NCBI GenBank assembly: GCA_011321845.1
Contig: DROQ01000211.1
Location: 21,911 to 85,910, forward strand
Reading direction: 5' to 3'
Source: Planctomycetota bacterium
GTDB taxonomy: Bacteria > Planctomycetota > UBA1135 > GCA-002748355
Length of the DNA: 64,000 nt
This document shows positions 3,598 through 62,428 of the stretch, in pieces. The notes under the pieces are model-generated. The model worked only from the letters and a program-made list of their open reading frames with translations. It was not told the DNA's origin and ran no database searches. A program made the translations under genes and the position numbers. How positions within the stretch are numbered: position 1 is the stretch's first letter; every line of letters starts with the position of its first letter.

Positions 3598-3863
3598 GGA
3601 AACGCCGGGAGGGGTTTTCTACCGGGGTTTTTTACGTGAAACGCCTGGAGGGGTTTTCTACCGGGGTTTTCTACGCAAAACGCCTGGAGGCGTTTCCTAC
3701 GTGAAACCCCTGGAGGGGTTTCCTACGCAAAACCCCTGGAGGGGTTTTCTACGTGAAACGCCTGGAGGCGTTCCCTACCGGCGTTCCCTACCGGCGTTCC
3801 CTACTGACGTTTCCTGCTGGCGTTCCCTACTGGGGTTCCTTATTGGGTTTTCTGGTGGGTTCC
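3598..3863. repeat. Tandem palindromic hairpin array, locus 1 (about 6 x 26-nt units plus about 7 x 13-nt half units)
   Basis: Units GAAAC[G/C]CC-TGGA-GG[C/G]GTTTC-CTACGY read directly; followed by tandem GGCGTTCCCTACC half units that decay into the 3' end of the 3827-5581 CDS. Confidence 0.95.
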
Positions 3864-5581
3864 ATTTTTCTTTTTTTGGGGGTGGGGGGTCTGCGGGTTC
3901 TTCTGCGGGGGAAGTTGAGGGAGAGCTTGAGCTGGGTTTCCTTGCCTTTGCGGCGGACGAAGAGGGAGACCTCCTTGGCGCCTTTTTGGAAGGCCCGGAA
4001 GATGCCCAGCATGATGTCGCGGGGCTCTTCGACCTTGTTCTTTCCGATGCGGAGGAAGAGGTCGCCCTTCTTGATCCCCGAGGCTTCGGCGGGGCTGCCC
4101 TTCTGGACACGGGAGACCAGCACTCCTTCGGCGAACTCGATGCCGAGCCGGAACCTGCGGCGCCGGTTTCCGCCCGTCAGCCTGGCGATCTCCGCGCGGC
4201 TGGTGCGGGGGAGGAGCTTGTCCAGGTTGGCGATGGCCAGGGCGCTCAGGGCGATCACCGTCGCGGACTGGCGCTGGTAGGGATCGATGGCCGCGTCGTA
4301 GGTGTCGTACTGGGTATGGTGGGTGTGGGTGTAGTTGGCCCTCCCCTTTTGCAGCCAGAAGAAGCCGGGGACCTTGGCCGAGACGAAGGAGGCGTGGTCG
4401 CTTCCGCCGACGAAGAACCTGAGGGGGCTGACTTCGAATTCGTACTGGGGATCCACCTTGTCGATTCCGGAAAGGGCTTTTCGCAGGATGGGGAGCTGGG
4501 AGGGGGTCGCCTGGAGGCCGGCGCAGTAGTTGGTGCCTCCGTCGTGGACCAGCACGGCCGAGACCCTATCGAGGAGGCCGTCGCTGCGGTGCTTTTTGAC
4601 GTAGGCCCGCGAGCCCATGAGTCCCTGCTCCTCCCCGGTCCAGAGCATGAAGCGGATGCTACGCTTGGGCCTGACCCCTGAGGCCATGAGGATGCGGGCC
4701 GCCTCCAGGGTCGTCGCCGTCCCCGTCCCGTTGTCTGTGGTTCCGGTGGCTCCGTCCCAGGAGTCGAGGTGTCCGCCTACGATGACGTATTCGTCGGGCT
4801 TCTCGGTCCCCACGATGTCGGCGACGACGTTGAAGTTGGGGATGGGGCCTTGGATGAAATGGTTTCGGATGTCGAAGAGGACGCGGGGCTTCTCACCCTT
4901 CTGGACGAGGTCTTTGAGTTTGTTGAACTCATCCACGCGCAGGGTGACCTCGGGGAGGGTGGGGCGCTTCTCCCAGCTGATGCGGAAGTTTCCGCTGGTG
5001 ATCAGGAGCTGGTTGCGGGAGGGAGCGATGAAGCCGAGGACGCCTTGGGTTTTGAGGAAGTCTTTGAGTTTGCGGGTCTTGGGGGAGAAGCGCCTTCGTC
5101 CCCCCAGCCTGCCGAGGATCCAGGCACCCTTGTAGAGATCGGGGCGGGCCTTGGCTTCTTCCAGGGTCTTGGGGAGGAGGAGGACCGGACCCTCCTGGCG
5201 CCCCTTGGTCCCAGCGCTCCAGGCGCGCGTCACAAAGTGGAGGTTCTGGGCAGCGCTTTTGGGAGAGGTGATCTCTCCGCTCCAGGGACCGCGCTCGAAC
5301 CCCACCTTCCAATCGCTCCACTTCTCCACGTGGGCGTTTTCGATCCCGAAGGACTGGAACTTGTCCTTGGCCCAATAGGCGGCGCGGATGGCCTGGGGGG
5401 AGCCGGTCAGCCGGGGGCCGATGCCGTTGGTCAGCTCGTCGAGGTGCTTGGCGACCTGGCTGTTCTGTTTGCCCTCTTGGATGATCCTGTCCCGGACGGC
5501 GCTCGGGACCAGGTTGGGGTCTTGGGCGGAGAGCAGGGTGGGCAGGAAGGCGAAGAGGAGAATCGAGGAGGGATGCTTCAT
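3827..5581 (-). CDS. Secreted M28-family aminopeptidase with C-terminal PDZ domain
   Basis: Internal ATG 5581 gives signal peptide MKHPSSILLFAFLPTLLSAQ; M28 motifs GGHLDSWDGATGTTDNGTG, WTGEEQGLMGS, GGSDHASF; PDZ GVLVSRVQKGSPAEASGIKKGDLFLRIG. The upstream 219 codons of the 803-aa ORF are judged to be shadow sequence. Confidence 0.85.
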   Translation of the reverse strand: MKHPSSILLFAFLPTLLSAQDPNLVPSAVRDRIIQEGKQNSQVAKHLDELTNGIGPRLTGSPQAIRAAYWAKDKFQSFGIENAHVEKWSDWKVGFERGPWSGEITSPKSAAQNLHFVTRAWSAGTKGRQEGPVLLLPKTLEEAKARPDLYKGAWILGRLGGRRRFSPKTRKLKDFLKTQGVLGFIAPSRNQLLITSGNFRISWEKRPTLPEVTLRVDEFNKLKDLVQKGEKPRVLFDIRNHFIQGPIPNFNVVADIVGTEKPDEYVIVGGHLDSWDGATGTTDNGTGTATTLEAARILMASGVRPKRSIRFMLWTGEEQGLMGSRAYVKKHRSDGLLDRVSAVLVHDGGTNYCAGLQATPSQLPILRKALSGIDKVDPQYEFEVSPLRFFVGGSDHASFVSAKVPGFFWLQKGRANYTHTHHTQYDTYDAAIDPYQRQSATVIALSALAIANLDKLLPRTSRAEIARLTGGNRRRRFRLGIEFAEGVLVSRVQKGSPAEASGIKKGDLFLRIGKNKVEEPRDIMLGIFRAFQKGAKEVSLFVRRKGKETQLKLSLNFPRRRTRRPPTPKKRKMEPTRKPNKEPQ

Positions 5582-6143: not shown

Positions 6144-6896
6144 GTGGCGGTCCTCGTAATGATCCCGACGCTGCGGGAGGCGGAAGCCCTGCTGGGGCCC
6201 GTTGCCGCGCGCCAGGCCCTCGAGGGGCGGGGGACCATTGGGGGACAGCCATGCTCCTTGGTGGGGATGGGGCCGATCGAGGCGGCGGTGGGGGCGGGGC
6301 GGGCCTTCGCGCGGCATCCCGAGGTGCAGGCTGGACTGCTGCTGGGGCTGGGGGGGAGCTACGACCTGAAAAGGGCGCCGCGGGGGGCGCTCGTGCGGGC
6401 GGAGTGGTTCGGGCTGGATCCGGCGCCCCTGGCTTTTTTGGAGAAGGGGGCCAGGCTGGGCCTGGAGGGGGAGCTGGAGGCGCGGCATCCCATGCCGGCC
6501 GAGGGGTTACCCGCTGCCCTCGGGAATTGGGAGGGCTCCGAAGAGATACTCTCCGGGGGTTTTGTGACGGTGGCGGCTCCCAGCGAGGAGCCCGGAGTTG
6601 GGAGGGAGCTTGGACCCGGGCTCGAGGGTGCAAAGCTTGGGCCCAGGCGCGGGGGGGCGAAGATGGGACCCGGACTGAAAGGGGCACAGCTTGGGCCGGG
6701 GCTCGAGGGGGCCCTGGTGGAGGAGATGGAGGGCTACGCCGTGGCGCGGGCGGGAATGGCCTTTGGCAAAGGGCTGGCATCCCTGCGGGCGATCTCGAAT
6801 GGGGTGGGGGAGCGGGACCTGGCCGTCTGGGACCTGGAGGGGGCTTTTCGGGCCCTTCGAAGAGTGGTGGAGGTCTTGCAGGGGGGGCTGGGATGA
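6144..6896 (+). CDS. mqnB: Futalosine hydrolase (nucleosidase family) with internal 9-aa x4 repeat insertion
   Basis: PNP_UDP-type motifs GMGPIEAAVGAG and EEMEGYAVA; adjacent and ATGA-coupled to mqnD. Start uncertain: GTG 6144 (GGAG RBS, just after rnhA stop) preferred; ATG 6096 or 6123 possible. Confidence 0.7.
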   Translation: MAVLVMIPTLREAEALLGPVAARQALEGRGTIGGQPCSLVGMGPIEAAVGAGRAFARHPEVQAGLLLGLGGSYDLKRAPRGALVRAEWFGLDPAPLAFLEKGARLGLEGELEARHPMPAEGLPAALGNWEGSEEILSGGFVTVAAPSEEPGVGRELGPGLEGAKLGPRRGGAKMGPGLKGAQLGPGLEGALVEEMEGYAVARAGMAFGKGLASLRAISNGVGERDLAVWDLEGAFRALRRVVEVLQGGLG

Positions 6897-16071: not shown

Positions 16072-17981
16072 TACCAGTCTCCAAAGACATCCGGCTCGTT
16101 TTGGGGCTTTTTGGGCCCCGTCTCCGGCTCCGGCGGAGGCGGCGGGATGTAATGCGTTTCGTCGTGGGCATCTCCCTCGCCAATGCGGGGTTTTTTCTTT
16201 TTCTTCCTGGCTCGGTCCTCGGGGACCTTTCCCTTGTCGATGGAGGTCGTGTCTCCCACGATGGATCCATAGGTCGGGATCTGGTTGGGGTCCAGCTCAA
16301 TTTCAGGAAGTGGAGGGAAGTAGCTCTTTTTTTCCTTGGAAGGCCTCTTCCTCTCCTTGCGCTTGGTGCCGCGGGCACCTTGGCCCCGGGGAGAAGAGGT
16401 CTTGGCCTTTTTGCTGCGTTCTTTGCCTCCACCTTTTTTTCGGCTTTTTCCCTCGCCGCGGTTGCCCGCTCCTTGCTTGGGGTTCTCTTCGCGCTTGGAA
16501 CCGCGTCGAGGACGCTCCGAACCTTCCTCCTCGGTTCGGCTCCCGGATCTCGCCTTGGTGGAATCTTCTTGAGAAAACCCCGCCTTTGACGGCCCGGCCT
16601 TTGACGATCCAGCCTTTGACGATCCAGCCTTTGACGACCCGGACAAGGCAGACGCGGCCTTGGAAGACCTTCCCATGGCTCCTCGGCCCTCTTCTTCCTT
16701 GGGTTTCCACTCTTCCCAGACTTCCCAGTCCACGAGGCCTGCGATCGCCCGGACTCTGAGGAGCTGGAGGGCAGGTTGAAAAGCGTCCGAAGTTTTCGGG
16801 CTGCGCCGCCGCCGTCCCTTCTTTCTCTTCTTCTTGCCTTCCTCGTCCTCTCTGGCGATGAGGCTGCCGACCTTGCCAGGTTCCCCTCCGTTCTCGAATC
16901 TTCCCTGAAGGGGGATGATCTTCTTGAGGAGGGCGACCTCCATCCGGGGTGTGTTCAAGTCCTGAAAGAGTCCGCCAATGTTCTCCTGGAGCCAGCGCCC
17001 GTATTCCACCAGTCGTTCAGGAACACCGCCTTCCTCCTTGGCCTTTTCTTCGACATGGAAGAGGATCAGCGAGGCCAGGCAGACCGAGGTGGGGAGGGGG
17101 GGGGCGCCTTTGGCCAACTCTTCCCGGTTGGCGCTGTCCAATCCCTCGAGGATCCGCCAAAAACGCATCCGTTCTTCGGGCTCGGCAGCTTCGAGGCTGC
17201 GCGAGAGGTCGGGGAGGAGGACCTTGAGCGCCCCGGAGTCCCGGAGGAGCTGGAAGGCCCGCAAAGCGAATCCACTCTTGAGAAAGCGTAGGAGTTCTTC
17301 GTAGATCCGCGGAGGCGCCCCCAGCTTGAGGTCGGGGGCGGCTTCGCACATCGCGTCCCAGGTCGTGGGCTCGATTTGGAAGGCGAGCCGCGAGGAGAAT
17401 TTGATCGCGCGGAGAATGCGGATGGGATCTTCCTTGAGGCGGATGAGGGGCTCCCCGATGGTCCGGATCAGGCCGTTCTGAAGGTCGGGGATGCCCTCGA
17501 CATAGTCGATGACCATGTCGCTCTCCGGCTCATAGAACAGCGCGTTGATCGTGAAGTCCCTGCGGTAGGCGTCCTCTTCGGCGTTTCCGAAGGCGTTGTC
17601 GCTGCGGATCAGGAGTTCGGATTCTCCCTCCTCCTCGTCCTCCTCCGAGGGCTGGGGACGCTGACGAAAGGTGGAGACTTCGAGAATCTTGCCTTCGAAG
17701 TGGAGATGGGCCAGCTTGAACCGGCGCCCAATGATCCTGCAATTCCGGAAGAGACTCTTGACCTGGCGCGGTCTGGCGGAGGTGGCGATATCAAAATCCT
17801 TGGGTACGCGGCCCAAGAGGAGATCTCTGACGCAGCCGCCCACCAGGTAGGTCTCGTGACTTTTTCTGCGGAGCCTTCGGACTACCCTGACGGCGTCTTC
17901 ATCCAGAGCCCGGGGGGGAATCCCCGTTCGCTCGTAGATGCGTGCCTCCAGTCTTGCGTCTTCCAGTTCAGTACCAACCAA
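16071..17981 (-). CDS. pcnB: Poly(A) polymerase / tRNA nucleotidyltransferase family protein with ~250-aa basic low-complexity tail
   Basis: LVGGCVRDLLLGRVPKDFDIAT and RRDFTINALFY (Pol-beta NTase head); tail has SSKAG x4 encoded by 15-nt tandem repeat 16582-16641; TTG start at 17981. Confidence 0.85.
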   Translation of the reverse strand: MVGTELEDARLEARIYERTGIPPRALDEDAVRVVRRLRRKSHETYLVGGCVRDLLLGRVPKDFDIATSARPRQVKSLFRNCRIIGRRFKLAHLHFEGKILEVSTFRQRPQPSEEDEEEGESELLIRSDNAFGNAEEDAYRRDFTINALFYEPESDMVIDYVEGIPDLQNGLIRTIGEPLIRLKEDPIRILRAIKFSSRLAFQIEPTTWDAMCEAAPDLKLGAPPRIYEELLRFLKSGFALRAFQLLRDSGALKVLLPDLSRSLEAAEPEERMRFWRILEGLDSANREELAKGAPPLPTSVCLASLILFHVEEKAKEEGGVPERLVEYGRWLQENIGGLFQDLNTPRMEVALLKKIIPLQGRFENGGEPGKVGSLIAREDEEGKKKRKKGRRRRSPKTSDAFQPALQLLRVRAIAGLVDWEVWEEWKPKEEEGRGAMGRSSKAASALSGSSKAGSSKAGSSKAGPSKAGFSQEDSTKARSGSRTEEEGSERPRRGSKREENPKQGAGNRGEGKSRKKGGGKERSKKAKTSSPRGQGARGTKRKERKRPSKEKKSYFPPLPEIELDPNQIPTYGSIVGDTTSIDKGKVPEDRARKKKKKPRIGEGDAHDETHYIPPPPPEPETGPKKPQNEPDVFGDW

Positions 17982-25262: not shown

Positions 25263-25270
25263 GGGGGAGG

Positions 25271-25374
25271 GGAAACGCCTGGAGGCGTTTCCTGCCGGCG
25301 TTTTCTGCTTGAAACGCCTGGAGGCGTTTCCCACCGGCGTTTTCTACCGGCGTTCCCTGCCGGCGTTTTCTACG
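25271..25374. repeat. Tandem palindromic hairpin array, locus 2
   Basis: Two perfect GGAAACGCCTGGAGGCGTTTCC hairpins interleaved with 13-nt half units GGCGTTTTCTRCY; starts 9 nt after stop at 25262. Confidence 0.95.
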
Positions 25375-37410: not shown

Positions 37411-37554
37411 AAACCTGTCAAAACCTGTCAAAACCTGTCAAAACCTGAATGATTTCTGAACCTGAAAGACTTCCGAAACTGAAGGCTTTCCGAGACTGAA
37501 AGATTCCAAAACGGACTGAAAGATTCCAAGACGGACTGAAAGATTCCAAAACGG
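37411..37554. repeat. Two sets of short direct repeats in the actF-cox gap
   Basis: AAACCTGTCA x3 (37411-37440, 4th partial) then five units of ACTGAAAGATTCCAARACGG (last three 20-nt copies 37495-37554 nearly identical). Confidence 0.95.
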
Positions 37555-37570
37555 AAGGGGCCTAAAAGCC

Positions 37571-57168: not shown

Positions 57169-59424
57169 ATGACCCAACTCGTTCCAAAGCCACCGTCGAG
57201 CACAGAGCCCCGAGAGGGTGGGGCCAGGGTTTCGTCCCCGCCCTCTCCCCGAGCGTTTCGGTTCAAGATCACGGGGATGACCTGCGCGACCTGCGCCGGG
57301 CGGATCGAAAAGGTTCTGCGGCGCCTGGACTCAGTCCTCTCGGCTCAGGTCAACTTGGCAACCGAGGTGGCGACGGTAGCCATCGGGCCCGGTCCTGGCG
57401 AGGAGGGAGCCGATGCCCTGATCGCCGCCATCGAGAGGGCGGGCTTCGGGGCACGGCTCGCGGACTCCGAAGACAAGGTCGCCGAGGAGCGCGAACAGCG
57501 GCAGCGGCGGCGGGAAAGCTGGATTCTTCTGGTTTCCGTTCTGCTGACTCTCCCCCTCGTCGCCCCCATGCTCCTCCATCCCTTTGGGCTTGTCTGGGCG
57601 CTCCCCCCCTGGCTGCAACTCGCCCTGGCGACACCGGTCCAATTCCTGGTGGGTTGGCGCTATTACCAAGGCGGCTGGGCGGCCCTTCGGGCGCGCACGG
57701 GCAACATGGATCTTCTTGTGGCCCTCGGCACCAGCGCTGCCTATGGGCTGAGCGTCTGGAACCTCGCCCAGGGGAAGCCTCACCTCTACTTCGAGGCTTC
57801 GGCGGCGGTCATCACCCTGGTCCTCTTCGGCAAACACATGGAGGCCCGAGCCAAGCGAAGCGCGACGGCTGCCATCCGGGCTCTCATGGCCCTGCGGCCC
57901 GATACGGCCAGGGTTCTCCGCGAGGGGGAGGCGATCGAGATCCCTGCCGAAGCCGTGGGCAAGGGCGAGGTCGTGCTCGTCAAACCCGGGGAGCGCATCC
58001 CCATGGACGGGGTGATCCTGCGCGGGGGTAGCCAGGTCGACAACTCCATGCTCACCGGGGAGAGCATGCCCGTTCGAGTGGAGGTGGGGGACGAGGTCAC
58101 GGGGGGGGCGATCAATGGGGAGGGGCTCCTCGAGGTCCGGGTCACCAGGGTGGGAGAAGAATCGACCCTGGCCCAGATCGTTCGGATGGTCGAGGGAGCC
58201 CAAGCCAAAAAAGCGCCCATCCAGCGGGTCGTGGACCGGGTCGCGGCGGTCTTCGTGCCGGCTGTCATTCTGGTTGCGCTTGGGACCCTGGTCGCTTGGA
58301 TGATGGCCGGAGTGGGGACCGAGGTGGCCATCGTCAACGCGGTCGCCGTGCTCGTGATCGCCTGTCCCTGCGCCCTTGGTCTTGCGACCCCGACGGCCTT
58401 GATGGTGGGGACCAGCGCGGCGGCGCGGGCGGGCATCTTGATCAAGGACGCCGAAGCCCTGGAGCAGTCCCACAGGGTGCAGACCGTGGTCTTCGACAAG
58501 ACCGGGACACTGACCCAGGGCCGGCCCATGGTGCAGGGCATGGTGGCGCTTCAGGGGACGGAGAGGGAGTTGCTCTACTGGGGGGCTTCGGCGCAGCAGG
58601 GGAGCGAGCATCCCCTGGCCAGGGCCCTCCTCAAGGAAGCGGAGAGGCTCGAGATCCCGCTGGGCCCGCTCACCTCCTTCAAGGCCCTGATGGGCAAGGG
58701 GCTCGAGGCCGTTGTGGGCGAGCGCCCCATTCTGGTCGGCAGCCAAAAGCTGATGGAGGAGAGGGGCATCTCCCTGGAGGATCTGCCTCCCGAGTTGGAG
58801 GCCTGGGAGGCCCGGGGGATGACCCTGGTGTTCGTGGCCCAGGGGGGCGAAGAGAGGCGGTTGCTCGGCGTTTTCGGGCTTGCCGATGCCTTGCGTCCTT
58901 CCTCGGCGCAGGCGGTCGCTTTTCTCCAGAGCCAGGGGATCGAAGTCGTGATGCTGAGTGGAGACCACCGTGCGGCCGCCGAGTTGGTGGGAAAGCGGCT
59001 TGGGGTGGATCGCACGATCGCCGAGGTGCTCCCAGGGGAAAAAGCCGATGTGGTCAGGGAACTGTCCCAGTCCGGTCGCGTGGTCGCCATGGTGGGGGAC
59101 GGCGTCAATGACGCGCCCGCGCTGGCGGCAGCCCAGGTGGGGCTTGCCGTTTCGAGCGGGACGGACGTGGCCATGGCCACAGCCTCGGTGACCCTGATGC
59201 GGCCCGATCCGCTGCTGGTGGGGGACTGTCTCTCGGTCTCCAAAGCCACCACGCGCAAGATCCACCAGAACCTGTTCTGGGCCTTTGTCTACAACATTGT
59301 CGCCATCCCCTTCGCGGCCATGGGCTACCTCAACCCCGTGATCGCGGGCGCCGCCATGGCCATGTCGAGCGTGAGCGTTGTGAGCAATTCGCTGCTCCTG
59401 CGCCGCTGGAGGCCGAGTCGATGA
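57169..59424 (+). CDS. copA: Copper-translocating P1B-type ATPase
   Basis: [18 protein letters not shown] in [27 protein letters not shown]; ATG 57169 after GGGAGA. Confidence 0.95.
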
Positions 59425-59843
59425 AGACCCAGGACAAAGGCCGCCGTTTGACGATCGGGCGCCTCGCCGAGGAGAGCGGGGTCCCGACCAAGACGATTCG
59501 TTATTACGAGGAAGTGGGGCTGCTTCCCCAGCCCGTCCGTGGAAGCAATGGCTACCGTCGCTACGAGGAGAGTGCCGTTCACATGCTGCGCTTCGTGAGC
59601 CGGGCGCGGGAGATGGGCTTTTCGATGGAGGAGACCCGGGAGCTGCTTGCCCTTTGGCTGGACAAGGGGCGTAAGAGCGCCGATGTGCGGGCGATCGCCT
59701 TGCGTCACCTTGCGACCATTACTCATAAGATTTCCAAGTTGCAGGGGCTTCAGGCCACTCTGCAGCACCTCGTGCGCTGCTGCCACGGGGACGACCGGCC
59801 TGATTGTCCGATTTTGGAGGCTCTAGCGGAGGAGGAGAGATGA
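59421..59843 (+). CDS. cueR: MerR-family Cu(I)-responsive regulator
   Basis: [27 protein letters not shown]; metal loop [14 protein letters not shown] matches E. coli CueR C..GDD..DCPI(I/L)E. Confidence 0.88.
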
Positions 59844-60097
59844 AGACTTATGGAATCAAGGGAATGACTTGTGAGGGTTGCGTTGGGGCGGTGACGAAGG
59901 CGCTTCAGGCGGTTTTGGGGGATGTGGAGTTTGAGGTTTCTTTGGCGGAGAACTGTGTGAAGGTGAAGGGGGAGCATGATCCGGAGAGGGTGAGGGAGGC
60001 GGTTGAGGGGGCGGGGTTTGAATTTGGGGGGGAGGGGGGGCTGGAAACACCTGGAGGTGTTTCCTACGGAAAACGCCTGGAGACGTTTTCTACTTAA
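59840..60097 (+). CDS. copZ: CopZ-like heavy-metal-associated chaperone with repeat-encoded C-terminal tail
   Basis: ATGA-coupled to cueR; [18 protein letters not shown]; last ~18 codons ([18 protein letters not shown]) lie inside hairpin array 3. Confidence 0.8.
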   Translation: MKTYGIKGMTCEGCVGAVTKALQAVLGDVEFEVSLAENCVKVKGEHDPERVREAVEGAGFEFGGEGGLETPGGVSYGKRLETFST

Positions 60098-60198
60098 AAC
60101 GTCTGGAGACGTTTTCTACATGAAACGTCTGGAGACGTTTCCTACTTGAAACGCCTGGAGGCGTTCCCTACCGGCGTTTCCTACCGGCGTTTCCTGCG
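60043..60198. repeat. Tandem palindromic hairpin array, locus 3 (5 full units plus 2 half units)
   Basis: GGAAACACCTGGAGGTGTTTCC, AAAACGTCTGGAGACGTTTT, GAAACGTCTGGAGACGTTTC, GAAACGCCTGGAGGCGTTCC etc.; between convergent copZ and 60206-62428. Confidence 0.95.
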
Positions 60199-60205
60199 GG
60201 GGGGG

Positions 60206-62428
60206 CTATTTGGGGGTGTGGGGGACGGTTTGGAAGAGGAGGACGAGGGCGCGTTGGAGGACGCGGCGGTCCTTGTCATCGATGCTGCCCTTTTGGACGA
60301 TCTTGTCGACTTGGGAGAGGAGGGCGGCGAAGGAGGGGTTGGCGCGGGCGAAGTTGGGGTATTCGCGGTGTTGGAGGCATTCCTTCAGGATCTTGCGCAT
60401 TTGGAGGGCGTCGCTGAGGCGGGCGCTGGGTTTGGCGAGGAAGGGGAGGGGGGCGCGGCGCTCGAGGAGGCCTTGGAGAAGGAGTCGGGAGAGGCGCAGG
60501 ACGCGGGCCATCTTGGCGTAATCGAGGTTGCGGGGCTGGTCGCTCGGGCGGTGGTAATACCAGGGGGTCGCTGAGCTGACGAAGAGGTAGGGGACCTTTT
60601 TGGCCCGAAAGGACATGTAGTCGCTGCGGGCGAGGGACGGGCCGAAGGGCTCCAGGATGTAGTTGCCGAGAGGAAGGATCTGGAAGGGTTCGCCCTTGAA
60701 CTTGGGTTGGATCTTTTGGATCAGGGTCTCCAGGGCGGGGCTGTGTTCACTGCCCATCAGGTAGATGTCGCCTTTGCGCCAGGGGAGGAAGTTTCCGCCG
60801 ACCAGGTCGTAGATCAGGGCGAAGCGGATGCGCGCGCAGGGGATCACCTCGTGGGAGACGAAGCGACGGGAGCCGACGAGTCCCTTTTCCTCTGCGTCGA
60901 AGAAGACGAAGGCGAGGTGGTAGGGGAGCTTGTGCTTTTGCGGGGCGAAGGCGGCGGCCAGGGCGAGGGTGACAGCGACTCCGGAGGCGTTGTCGTCCGC
61001 GCCGGGGTAGTAAGTCCTGGCGCGCTTGCCGAGGTGGTCGTAGTGGGCACCGATCAGGAGGTAGTCCTTGGCGTCTTTGTTCCCCGGGAGGATGCCCACG
61101 AGGTTGCGGCAGCGGGCGCGTCCATAGCGGAATTCATGGACATAGCCGGCTCCTTCCTTTCCGCGAACACCAGGTTCGAGGCCGAGGGCCTCGATGCGCT
61201 GGAGGAGCCAGTCGCCGGCCTTGCGCCCCCCGGGGGTGCCGGCGCCGCGGCCTTGGAATTCGGGAGAGGCCAGCTTGGAGACATCCGCTCGGAGCGCGGC
61301 CTCGAGTTTGGTGGGAGACTTCTGTTGAGGAGGGACGAGGAGGGCGAGCAGGCGGCGGCTCAGGGGTTTGAGCCTGGCGTACTCGCAATTGCTCATGAGG
61401 GCGACGCCGCTGTGGAGTTCGGGAAGGGCGAGAAGCCAGGTCCGGGTCTTTTCCTGAGCGCCTGCGTGCTCCACCAGCCGTTTGCCGGCGTAGCGACCGA
61501 GGGCGAAGCCCAACCCGTAACGCGTCCGCTTGCCATTCTTCAACGCGGGGCTGGTCCAGAGGGTCTCCCAACTCTTCTTTTTGAGCAAGGATGGGCTTCC
61601 CCAGGCTGCGCCGAAGCGCGCGAGGTCCACGACATGGGACAGGAACCCGCCCCCCGGCAGCTTCCAGCTCACGTCCGTGTTGCTGGAGGGGAAGGGCTCT
61701 CCCTTTTTTCCGAGCCGCTGGTAGCCGACCGCCCGCCCGGGGATGTCCTTCCACTGGTAATCGGGCTCCAGGCTGGAGAGGCCGAGGGGGAGCTTGATCC
61801 TCTTTCGCACCTGTTCCCAGTAGGGGACGCCTCCCGCCCGGCGGAGTACCGCGCCTGCCAGGATGAAGCCATGGGTGGAGTAGCTGTATTTGGTCCCGGG
61901 CTCGGCGATCAGCGGGGAGTCCTTGAAGGTGTCGAGGGCCAGGATGAGGTTGGCGAAGGGATGCTTCTCTTTGTAGCTGCGCTGGGTCCGGATGACCTTG
62001 CCGTTTCGGTAGTGCACGATCCCCGCCTGGTGGGCCAGGAGGCGCCGCATGGTGATGGGCCAAGGTTTCTTGGGAAACTCCGGGACATAGCTGCGGATGT
62101 CCTTGTCCAAATCCAGCTTGCCCTGCTCCACCAGCTGCATGGCAGCGATGGCGGTCAGAGGTTTTGAGATCGATGCCCAGCGATACTTGGTCTCCTTGCT
62201 GGCGGGGATCCTGGCCTCGCGGTCGGCGAAGCCATAGCCCTTGGCGTAAACGACCTTGCCTCCTCGAAACAAGGCGACCGAGAGTCCGACAAGGTTTTGC
62301 CGCCGCATACTCCGCTGCGCCAGCGCATCCACCTTTGCGGGGAGGGTTGGAGCTGCTTCTTGTGGAGGGGATCCCTGGGGAGCCAGGGCCATGAGAGGAA
62401 GGAGCGAGGAGAGGATGGTCGGCATCAT
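60206..62428 (-). CDS. Secreted fusion: serine hydrolase (class C beta-lactamase/PBP-like) plus M28 peptidase
   Basis: Internal ATG 62428 gives leader MMPTILSSLLPLMALAPQ; SxxK SISK in YRWASISKPLTA; C-terminal GAHYDHLG, GADDNASGVA, FFDAEEKGLVGS (M28). Confidence 0.8.
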   Translation of the reverse strand: MMPTILSSLLPLMALAPQGSPPQEAAPTLPAKVDALAQRSMRRQNLVGLSVALFRGGKVVYAKGYGFADREARIPASKETKYRWASISKPLTAIAAMQLVEQGKLDLDKDIRSYVPEFPKKPWPITMRRLLAHQAGIVHYRNGKVIRTQRSYKEKHPFANLILALDTFKDSPLIAEPGTKYSYSTHGFILAGAVLRRAGGVPYWEQVRKRIKLPLGLSSLEPDYQWKDIPGRAVGYQRLGKKGEPFPSSNTDVSWKLPGGGFLSHVVDLARFGAAWGSPSLLKKKSWETLWTSPALKNGKRTRYGLGFALGRYAGKRLVEHAGAQEKTRTWLLALPELHSGVALMSNCEYARLKPLSRRLLALLVPPQQKSPTKLEAALRADVSKLASPEFQGRGAGTPGGRKAGDWLLQRIEALGLEPGVRGKEGAGYVHEFRYGRARCRNLVGILPGNKDAKDYLLIGAHYDHLGKRARTYYPGADDNASGVAVTLALAAAFAPQKHKLPYHLAFVFFDAEEKGLVGSRRFVSHEVIPCARIRFALIYDLVGGNFLPWRKGDIYLMGSEHSPALETLIQKIQPKFKGEPFQILPLGNYILEPFGPSLARSDYMSFRAKKVPYLFVSSATPWYYHRPSDQPRNLDYAKMARVLRLSRLLLQGLLERRAPLPFLAKPSARLSDALQMRKILKECLQHREYPNFARANPSFAALLSQVDKIVQKGSIDDKDRRVLQRALVLLFQTVPHTPK

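Follow-up and report, generated by a model that had tools for sequence, protein, structure and literature searches.

Between the convergent genes copZ, which encodes a copper chaperone, and a gene for a β-lactamase/peptidase M28 protein lies a tandem array of short hairpins, in a 64,000-nt stretch (here called the window) of contig DROQ01000211.1 from an uncultured hydrothermal-vent Planctomycetota bacterium. We analyzed this array, designated locus 3, and conclude that it is probably a cluster of a lineage-specific family of elements resembling GTAG-tagged repetitive extragenic palindromes (REPs). GTAG-tagged REPs are a known kind of element; the sequence family is new and has a few unusual organizational traits. 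Members of the family are scattered among housekeeping genes unrelated to one another, at their 3' ends.

Positions 60044–60197 are taken up by five hairpin units of 26 nt each, whose cores begin at 60044, 60070, 60096, 60122 and 60148, and by two half units of 13 nt. Tandem Repeats Finder scored 60045–60171 as a period-26 array (score 156; 4.9 copies) and 60160–60195 as a run of period 13 behind it. On the plus strand, each unit opens with the left arm (G/A)AAAC-NN-C; the loop is TGGA, the right arm is G-NN-GTTT(C/T), and a CTAC tail and a linker of 2–3 nt follow. On the minus strand the 26 nt read 5'-GTAG-(G/A)AAAC-NN-C / TCCA / G-NN-GTTT(C/T)-nn: the GTAG head is unpaired, and the hairpin behind it has 8 bp and a 4-nt loop. 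The palindromic core of 20 nt (8-bp stem plus 4-nt loop) falls within the size range of GTAG-tagged REPs (20–50 nt). Half units consist of the plus-strand right arm and tail only. The components are as follows.

60044–60067, minus strand: unit 1, GAAACACC-TGGA-GGTGTTTC plus CTAC; the minus strand reads GTAG plus hairpin.
60070–60093, minus strand: unit 2, AAAACGCC-TGGA-GACGTTTT plus CTAC; a C.A mismatch on the plus strand is a U.G wobble on the minus strand.
60096–60119, minus strand: unit 3, AAAACGTC-TGGA-GACGTTTT plus CTAC; the linker just ahead contains the TAA (60095–60097) at which the extended copZ open reading frame (ORF) stops.
60122–60145, minus strand: unit 4, GAAACGTC-TGGA-GACGTTTC plus CTAC; duplicated in strain L040.
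60148–60171, minus strand: unit 5, of the 'terminal' type, GAAACGCC-TGGA-GGCGTTCC plus CTAC; the commonest type in the family (13 copies).
60173–60184 and 60186–60197, minus strand: two 13-nt half units, GGCGTTTCCTAC C and GGCGTTTCCTGC, with GTAG head and 5' arm only, adjoining the stop codon of the minus-strand gene.

An earlier note on this DNA had recorded five full units with self-complementary stem variants, and the stems are as written there: ACACC/GGTGT, ACGCC/GACGT (one C.A mismatch), ACGTC/GACGT (in two units) and ACGCC/GGCGT. Beyond the 5-nt core quoted there, unit 5 carries an outer mismatch, A.C on the plus strand and G.U on the minus strand. Allowing up to one mismatch, the 9-mer GTTTCCTAC occurs 28 times, versus 8.0 ± 3.2 times in shuffled sequence, and none of 100 shuffles reached 28. 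The folding comparison suggested in the note, run for both strands, showed the array region to be more stable than shuffles (z = –3.2, –7.6 and –6.6). Contig L001, an independent ENA assembly, carries the array base for base. Logan contig L002 is also identical across the first two and a half units, stopping within unit 3. Since the same array is present in independent assemblies, the stem variants are not the sequencing errors that would have undone the earlier description.

Comparison of units showed that the stems covary, with substitutions in matched form. Over 16 distinct unit types, 95% of the cells were paired, and 4 of the 8 stem pairs had changed on both sides. None of 500 shuffles reached the observed score, and slid controls were ~50% paired, which bears out the compensatory stem variation noticed previously. 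The family has five discrete complementary stem types, the pattern seen in subfamilies of GTAG-tagged REPs.

The two strands differ in how well they tolerate the remaining mismatches. On the GTAG strand, all five locus 3 units fold along the whole 8-bp stem, at –6.2 to –10.4 kcal/mol, whereas unit 2 on the opposite strand reaches only –2.4 kcal/mol. It is almost exclusively on the GTAG strand that mismatches can pair as wobbles: four single-mismatch types (16 copies) are G.U there, versus one type on the other strand. Plus-strand A.C or C.A mismatches that become G.U on the GTAG strand occur in the commonest unit (13 copies), in unit 2 of locus 3 and in two other types.

Unit 2 captures one such change in several states. 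In strain L040/L041, it has a perfect GCC/GGC stem (GGCG arm), with C-G at the wobble pair. In the window, L001 and L002 the stem is half-changed, and the neighbouring units are GTC/GAC. Read on the minus strand, the pair thus goes through C-G (L040/L041), U.G (window) and U-A (neighbouring units). With this three-stage series, the mismatched unit is plausibly an intermediate in a stem change, as had been proposed, although the C.A 'mismatch' is actually a U.G wobble on the GTAG strand, opposite copZ. The L040 array also differs from that of the window by one extra full unit and one half unit fewer (net +13 nt), so arrays change by unit-sized steps of 26 and 13 nt.

Units of the same family were found at 3599–3847 (locus 1) and 25270–25373 (locus 2), making three loci in the window.

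3599–3865, minus strand: locus 1, six hairpin units and more than five half units, with degenerate half units included.
25270–25373, minus strand: locus 2, two hairpin units interleaved with four half units, with degenerate tails CTGC/CCAC, between two plus-strand genes.

A pattern scan of JGI metagenomes gave 11 further contigs, all from sample Ga0256832 and each with 2–6 units. Contig ends hold many of these arrays, as repeats that break assemblies would lead one to expect. Similarity among these contigs, as well as with the window, is restricted to the repeats, and the flanks are unrelated: genes next to the arrays encode NAD synthase, TatA, thioredoxin, rubrerythrin and a DUF255 protein. 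All loci lie between ORFs or overlap last codons, as dispersed extragenic GTAG-tagged REPs do, and the arrays begin 0–11 nt from stop codons. In a search that left the tail unconstrained, 51 of the 54 family units had CTAC (GTAG on the opposite strand) there; CTGC, CCAC and CTAT were the other forms.

Some loci are more elaborate. L015 and L031 share 191 nt at 94% identity, and L023 and L031 share a 129-nt match. The order within this composite is four GTAG-oriented units (GCC, ACC, CCC and AGCC, in this fixed sequence), two unrelated small hairpins and then GTC-type units in the opposite orientation. Its recurrence suggests a larger mobile module of ~190 nt. Copies of the composite lie at L015 163–353, L031 967–1157, L023 2428–2556 and L020 1–111, amid unrelated flanks. 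Five loci (L015, L016, L019, L023 and L031) are two-sided and head-to-head, with GTAG heads facing outwards: a GTAG block, one or two unrelated small hairpins in the center and a CTAC block. Half units are always at the outer, gene-proximal edge of these loci. At each of the three window loci, all units share one orientation, without the alternation seen in bacterial interspersed mosaic elements (BIMEs) and in REP pairs known as REPINs.

Nearly all arrays with a neighbouring gene that could be called turn their GTAG side towards the closest gene's 3' end. They include locus 1, locus 3 with respect to its minus-strand gene, both sides of L015 and L016, the left side of L019, and L020, L021, L025 and L032; locus 2 is the exception. 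The CTAC orientation is on the G-rich strand in 9 of 9 arrays that look one-sided and in 44 of 54 units. We take a replication-strand bias as a lead only: it is confounded with the gene rule, the contigs are short, and truncation may have made some of the arrays look one-sided. GC skew in the window is positive in 15 of 16 4-kb bins (maximum 0.18; one bin at –0.004), regardless of gene orientation.

These properties can be set beside those of described REPs, which are often clustered and often associated with a gene for a TnpA-REP/RAYT transposase (PMC8266576). GTAG-tagged REPs, as defined by Di Nocera et al. (PMC3733652), have stems of 6–9 bp, loops of 2–4 nt and frequent G.T pairs, fall into subfamilies with complementary stem changes, and form head-head, tail-tail and head-tail dimers as well as tandem reiterations. 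They adjoin the 3' ends of convergent and unidirectional ORFs, their GTAG termini can supply the TAG stop of flanking ORFs, and they can encode residues within or at the ends of ORFs (PMC3733652). As of 2013, the super-family included the SMAGs of S. maltophilia, Pseudomonas GTAG-1, Thauera GTAG-1, and PVC-group families in Rhodopirellula baltica and Opitutus terrae; members are known from Planctomycetes and Verrucomicrobia (PMC3733652). A RAYT gene flanked by repeats (a REPtron) is usual and not universal, since REPtrons can be missing (PMC3733652).

Judged from sequence, every descriptive trait of GTAG-tagged REPs that is testable here was found. The family has an unpaired GTAG at one stem end, a short stem, a small loop and G.T pairs; it has complementary stem subfamilies, an extragenic location near 3' ends, TAG donation and some repeat-encoded residues; and it has head-head clusters and tandem units. 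There is likeness also to E. coli BIMEs/REPtrons and Pseudomonas REPINs, in the GTAG-led palindrome and the two-sided inverted clusters (PMC8266576, PMC3116915), and the ~190-nt composite at unlinked loci recalls BIMEs and REPINs as REP pairs mobilized by TnpA-REP/RAYT. Unlike these, the locus 3 units all point one way and the stem is without a bulge.

Several observations weigh against assignment to the GTAG-tagged REPs. The arrays are mostly head-to-tail with 2–3-nt linkers, whereas head-tail dimers are under-represented among described REPs (PMC3733652). Runs of 13-nt half units (GTAG plus 5' arm) capping the gene-proximal edge are likewise not typical of described REPs. With respect to the gene upstream of it, locus 2 is turned the 'wrong' way. 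There are only three loci in ~82 kb; the 18 kb further along the source contig has no more arrays, its two half-unit pattern matches being chance. Finally, in contrast to BIMEs, REPINs and many GTAG-tagged REPs, no cognate RAYT/Y1 transposase gene was found within the ~107 kb examined, which is a small part of the genome. Pfam identified no Y1_Tnp domain in ~50 window ORFs or 20 ORFs of array contigs, nor in precomputed annotation of the additional 18 kb, and tblastn with an approximate E. coli RAYT query gave no match. The exact repeat sequence has no match in the searchable literature. Among 185,579 GTDB species representatives, where this lineage is not represented, the unit pattern gave three single chance matches, and it gave none in the viral contigs scanned.

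The relation of the array to copZ requires separate treatment, as the earlier note had held that the array supplies the C-terminal tail of CopZ and that the element repeatedly remodels the 3' ends of genes. The features and contigs concerned are these.

59840–60034, plus strand: copZ as in relatives, 64 codons plus codon 65, read as GAG in this sequence, whereas four near-identical contigs have TAG.
60032–60097, plus strand: copZ read-through extension, in this assembly only, 21 codons plus TAA; codons 69–85 come from units 1–2 and the next linker.
60026–60040, plus strand: G7-A-G7 run (G7 at 60026–60032 and at 60034–60040), containing the mutated stop codon (G6-TAG-G6 in relatives).
60198–60205, plus strand: G8 run, separating the array from the convergent gene's stop codon.
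60206–62425, minus strand: convergent β-lactamase/peptidase M28 gene, 739 aa as called on L001, stop codon at 60206–60208; the array is GTAG-first relative to its transcript.
L001 (ENA ERZ940665): array identical to that of the window; codon 65 is TAG.
L002 (Logan SRR7787180): array identical as far as the contig reaches; codon 65 is TAG.
L040 (ENA ERZ27262687): variant array; codon 65 is TAG.
L041 (Logan SRR8439053): variant array as far as the contig reaches; codon 65 is TAG.

In the window, the copZ frame is open from the ATG at 59840 to the TAA at 60095–60097 (85 aa), with codons 69–85 within the array. It was therefore correct that the ORF enters the array and that the array lies between convergent genes, copZ on the plus strand and the β-lactamase/M28 gene on the minus strand. 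The 85-aa product and CopA of the window exactly match NCBI proteins HHI80908.1 and HHI80906.1, respectively. The proposed comparison with CopZ homologues, once run, spoke against an array-derived tail: all homologues found are 63–64 aa long. The native stop, at codon 65, is 9 nt ahead of the array. Codon 65 (60032–60034) is GAG only in the metagenome-assembled genome (MAG) of the window. The 21 extra codons are present because a single T>G at 60032 turned the native TAG into GAG. As the four near-identical contigs keep TAG beside the same or a similar array, the tail is not an array remodeling event.

The surroundings of this substitution are informative. L001 and L002 are 99.96% identical to the window, and a 99.7-kb hydrothermal-vent metagenome contig carries the same region with 4 differences in 10,161 nt. 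Three copZ haplotypes were seen: V60 with TAG, F60 with TAG, and F60 with GAG, the last only in the MAG of the window. The window and L002 differ at only two positions in 6.3 kb, 60017 and 60032, 15 nt apart and both G/T changes beside G runs. V60F (60017) is a real polymorphism, present in two other samples; the stop loss is unique to the window MAG, and its T>G sits inside GGGGGG-T-AGGGGGGG. On this sequence evidence, the tail is either a single-assembly stop loss (a rare allele) or a consensus or assembly error in a G15-like stretch. Loss of the TAG would let translation continue to the first in-frame stop inside the array, leaving the tail as a by-product. By the same comparison, the array did not remodel copZ, to which it is antisense (CTAC orientation), and merely supplies the sequence read once the stop is lost. 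The C-terminal extension of HHI80908.1, annotated as a 'copper chaperone' of 85 aa, is most likely spurious or private to one strain.

Locus 1 is a different matter, and there the claim of remodeling stands. The TAG stop of the M28-PDZ gene (3827–3829) is part of a half-unit GTAG head, and the last 11 residues of the protein, EPTRKPNKEPQ, come from degenerate half units (3827–3865), giving a C-terminus that reads KKRKMEPTRKPNKEPQ. The homologue in L034, 76% identical, ends in KKRKM and is followed by an array-free spacer of 80 nt. Compared with this relative, locus 1 is a real 11-residue extension with a repeat-supplied stop. TAG stops are also drawn from GTAG heads in copZ of relatives L010 and L006.

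Orthologous sites in relatives gave a view of how arrays come and go (at the copZ site, the relatives' proteins are 72–76% identical). In L010 the copZ site carries one hairpin only, gcGTAGAAAACCCaggcgGGGTTTTCTACc, and copZ uses its TAG as stop; the arms and loop of this hairpin, GTAGAAAACCC-aggcg-GGGTTTTCTAC, fit exactly between both stop codons. L006 has several different hairpins at the copZ site and, elsewhere on the contig, a 26-nt-period array, AAAAACCC-AGGA-GGGGTTTT-CTAC-AC, with the same architecture and another stem and loop. At the locus 1 orthologue in L034, the array is absent. From these comparisons, the architecture is older than the species, but individual arrays turn over. Arrays are gained or lost between relatives at 72–76% protein identity. 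In place of a hairpin array, the copZ/β-lactamase spacer of L008 (6196–7821) and L009 (1971–3596) contains 1.6 kb of inserted DNA; four small ORFs lie within it, and one of these shows weak similarity to an aspartic protease.

Other explanations for the array were considered. The units might be home-grown bidirectional intrinsic terminators, duplicated in tandem where they stand and not mobile as REPs are. An A-tract/GC stem/T-tract symmetry, with AAAC-GC core-GTTT the same on both strands, would suit such a role, as would the site between convergent genes, the position of every array directly downstream of genes and the lone hairpin of L010 exactly between stop codons; slippage would account for the unit-number polymorphism. 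Yet when 59000–61000 was scanned for stems with 5 or more T among the next 8 nt, the 2 sites that came up (2.0 expected) both lay outside the array. The GC core is only 4 bp, and each locus 3 stem is trailed only by TTT(T)C, a tract too short or too interrupted for a consensus scan for Rho-independent terminators. Nor are multiplication of units 5–6 times, a conserved unpaired GTAG or a dispersed sequence family terminator traits, and near-identical composites amid unrelated flanks require dispersal. We give this explanation a small chance; it overlaps with the REP reading, since REPs themselves are credited with termination and stabilization. That the array is a neutral minisatellite, with hairpins and covariation as by-products of whole-unit copying by slippage alone, seems to us improbable. 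Neighbouring units do often share a stem type (GTC three times in L015 and L020; units 3–4 of locus 3), and strains differ by whole and half units, but slippage leaves unexplained the five discrete complementary stem types, the wobble compatibility on one strand only, the conserved GTAG and the many unlinked loci beside gene 3' ends.

We think it very unlikely that the element rewrites protein C-termini such that the 21-residue CopZ tail is a functional repeat-supplied extension. The ORF is indeed open into the array here and annotated as such by NCBI, locus 1 sets a precedent, and REP-encoded peptide segments are documented in other bacteria (PMC3733652). For copZ, however, the idea is already largely refuted by the TAG retained in four near-identical contigs, the uniform length of the homologues, the antisense orientation of the array and the context of the T>G, which fits an error or rare allele. 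The chance that the array is a degenerate or spacer-less relative of a CRISPR array, or another known structured RNA gene, is close to nil. CRISPR arrays are likewise short, partly palindromic tandem direct repeats (24–48 nt), and the 26-nt units contain GTTT...GAAAC-like motifs; against this, linkers of 2–3 nt leave no spacers, Pfam scans of the window found no cas domains, and there are many small loci at gene 3' ends. We rejected a CRISPR identity on the lack of spacers and cas genes. Rfam gave no match at the gathering threshold across the whole window (no tRNA, rRNA or other family), and in E-value mode the best match in the array region was CrfA, at 20.2 bits versus a threshold of 38.

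If locus 3 is a GTAG-tagged REP cluster, replication slippage or unequal exchange between units could produce local growth and shrinkage of arrays, and a single-strand DNA mechanism, of the RAYT/TnpA-REP type or an alternative to it, could seed units and the ~190-nt composite at new loci. Whichever gene lies upstream of the GTAG side would carry the array in its transcript as the 3' untranslated region (UTR); at locus 3 that is the minus-strand β-lactamase/M28 gene and not copZ. There, the hairpins may act as 3'-end stabilizers or as pause or termination elements. As arrays begin 0–11 nt past stop codons, they could also affect translation termination. The original work on REPs near ORF ends and translation termination is reportedly that of Liang, Rudd and Deutscher (2015). 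In PMC12306157, E. coli REPs located ≤15 nt from an ORF are proposed to have such an effect.

A bolder interpretation, which we hold only tentatively and think unlikely, is that the family represents a distinct Planctomycetota REP organization, with ordered head-to-tail cassettes of differing hairpins, half-unit caps, a GTAG strand that coincides with the upstream gene's sense strand (and perhaps with the replichore's C-rich strand), and constraint on that strand only, as seen in the wobble asymmetry. If so, it would be a translation- or termination-coupled 3'-UTR RNA module whose means of spread has as yet no link to any known RAYT class. Its mover might then be a class 3 Y1 enzyme, typical of Planctomycetes, or no transposase at all; Quentin et al. 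found class 3 Y1 proteins flanked by CnGA-foot structures, not GTAG.

The G runs on either side of locus 3 had been noted as bracketing the array. Their coordinates are correct, but they are specific to this locus. Runs of at least six G number 57 in the window, versus 54 expected from base composition. G runs also occur near locus 1, and locus 2 and several metagenome loci are without them. The suggested G-quadruplex check found canonical motifs bracketing the locus 3 array only, the left one being canonical only in the mutated GAG form. We therefore rejected G runs as a feature of the family and regard the bracketing as local, not as part of the element.

Other repeats were seen in the region, whose genes by Pfam are ordinary (alternative complex III, caa3-type oxidase, MlaDEF, ThuA-type proteins and others). 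At 37411–37555, in a gap of lower GC (0.53) between alternative-complex-III genes and SCO1/cytochrome oxidase genes, are three adjoining sets of short direct repeats, AAACCTGTCA (3.7 copies), a 17-mer (3.6 copies) and GACTGAAAGATTCCAAAACG (3.1 copies). By sequence these look like iterated binding sites. At 2496–2540, near the 3' end of a minus-strand TrkA-type channel gene, GCAACCCTGGCCA recurs in 3.5 copies with 96% matches; in L034, a related motif stands in about two copies at the same place (1876–1896). Tandem repeats at 6607–6712 (period 27, 3.9 copies, 67% matches) and 16577–16640 (period 15, 4.3 copies, 87%) are apparently coding. Past the window end, L036 11189–11463 (about 64155–64429 in window numbering) is a 142-nt tandem duplication (1.9 copies, 88% matches) that spans the ends of an FG-GAP gene and an RF-1-domain gene.

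These findings open no new mechanism; their value is that of a well-documented case and an annotation warning. Repeat arrays that touch stop codons can make C-terminal extensions appear meaningful. Locus 3 also offers a clean natural case in which one stem pair is seen at the stages C-G, U.G and U-A across strains and neighbouring units, together with a change in unit number. With the family probably of this type, GTAG-tagged REPs would extend to an uncultured hydrothermal-vent Planctomycete.

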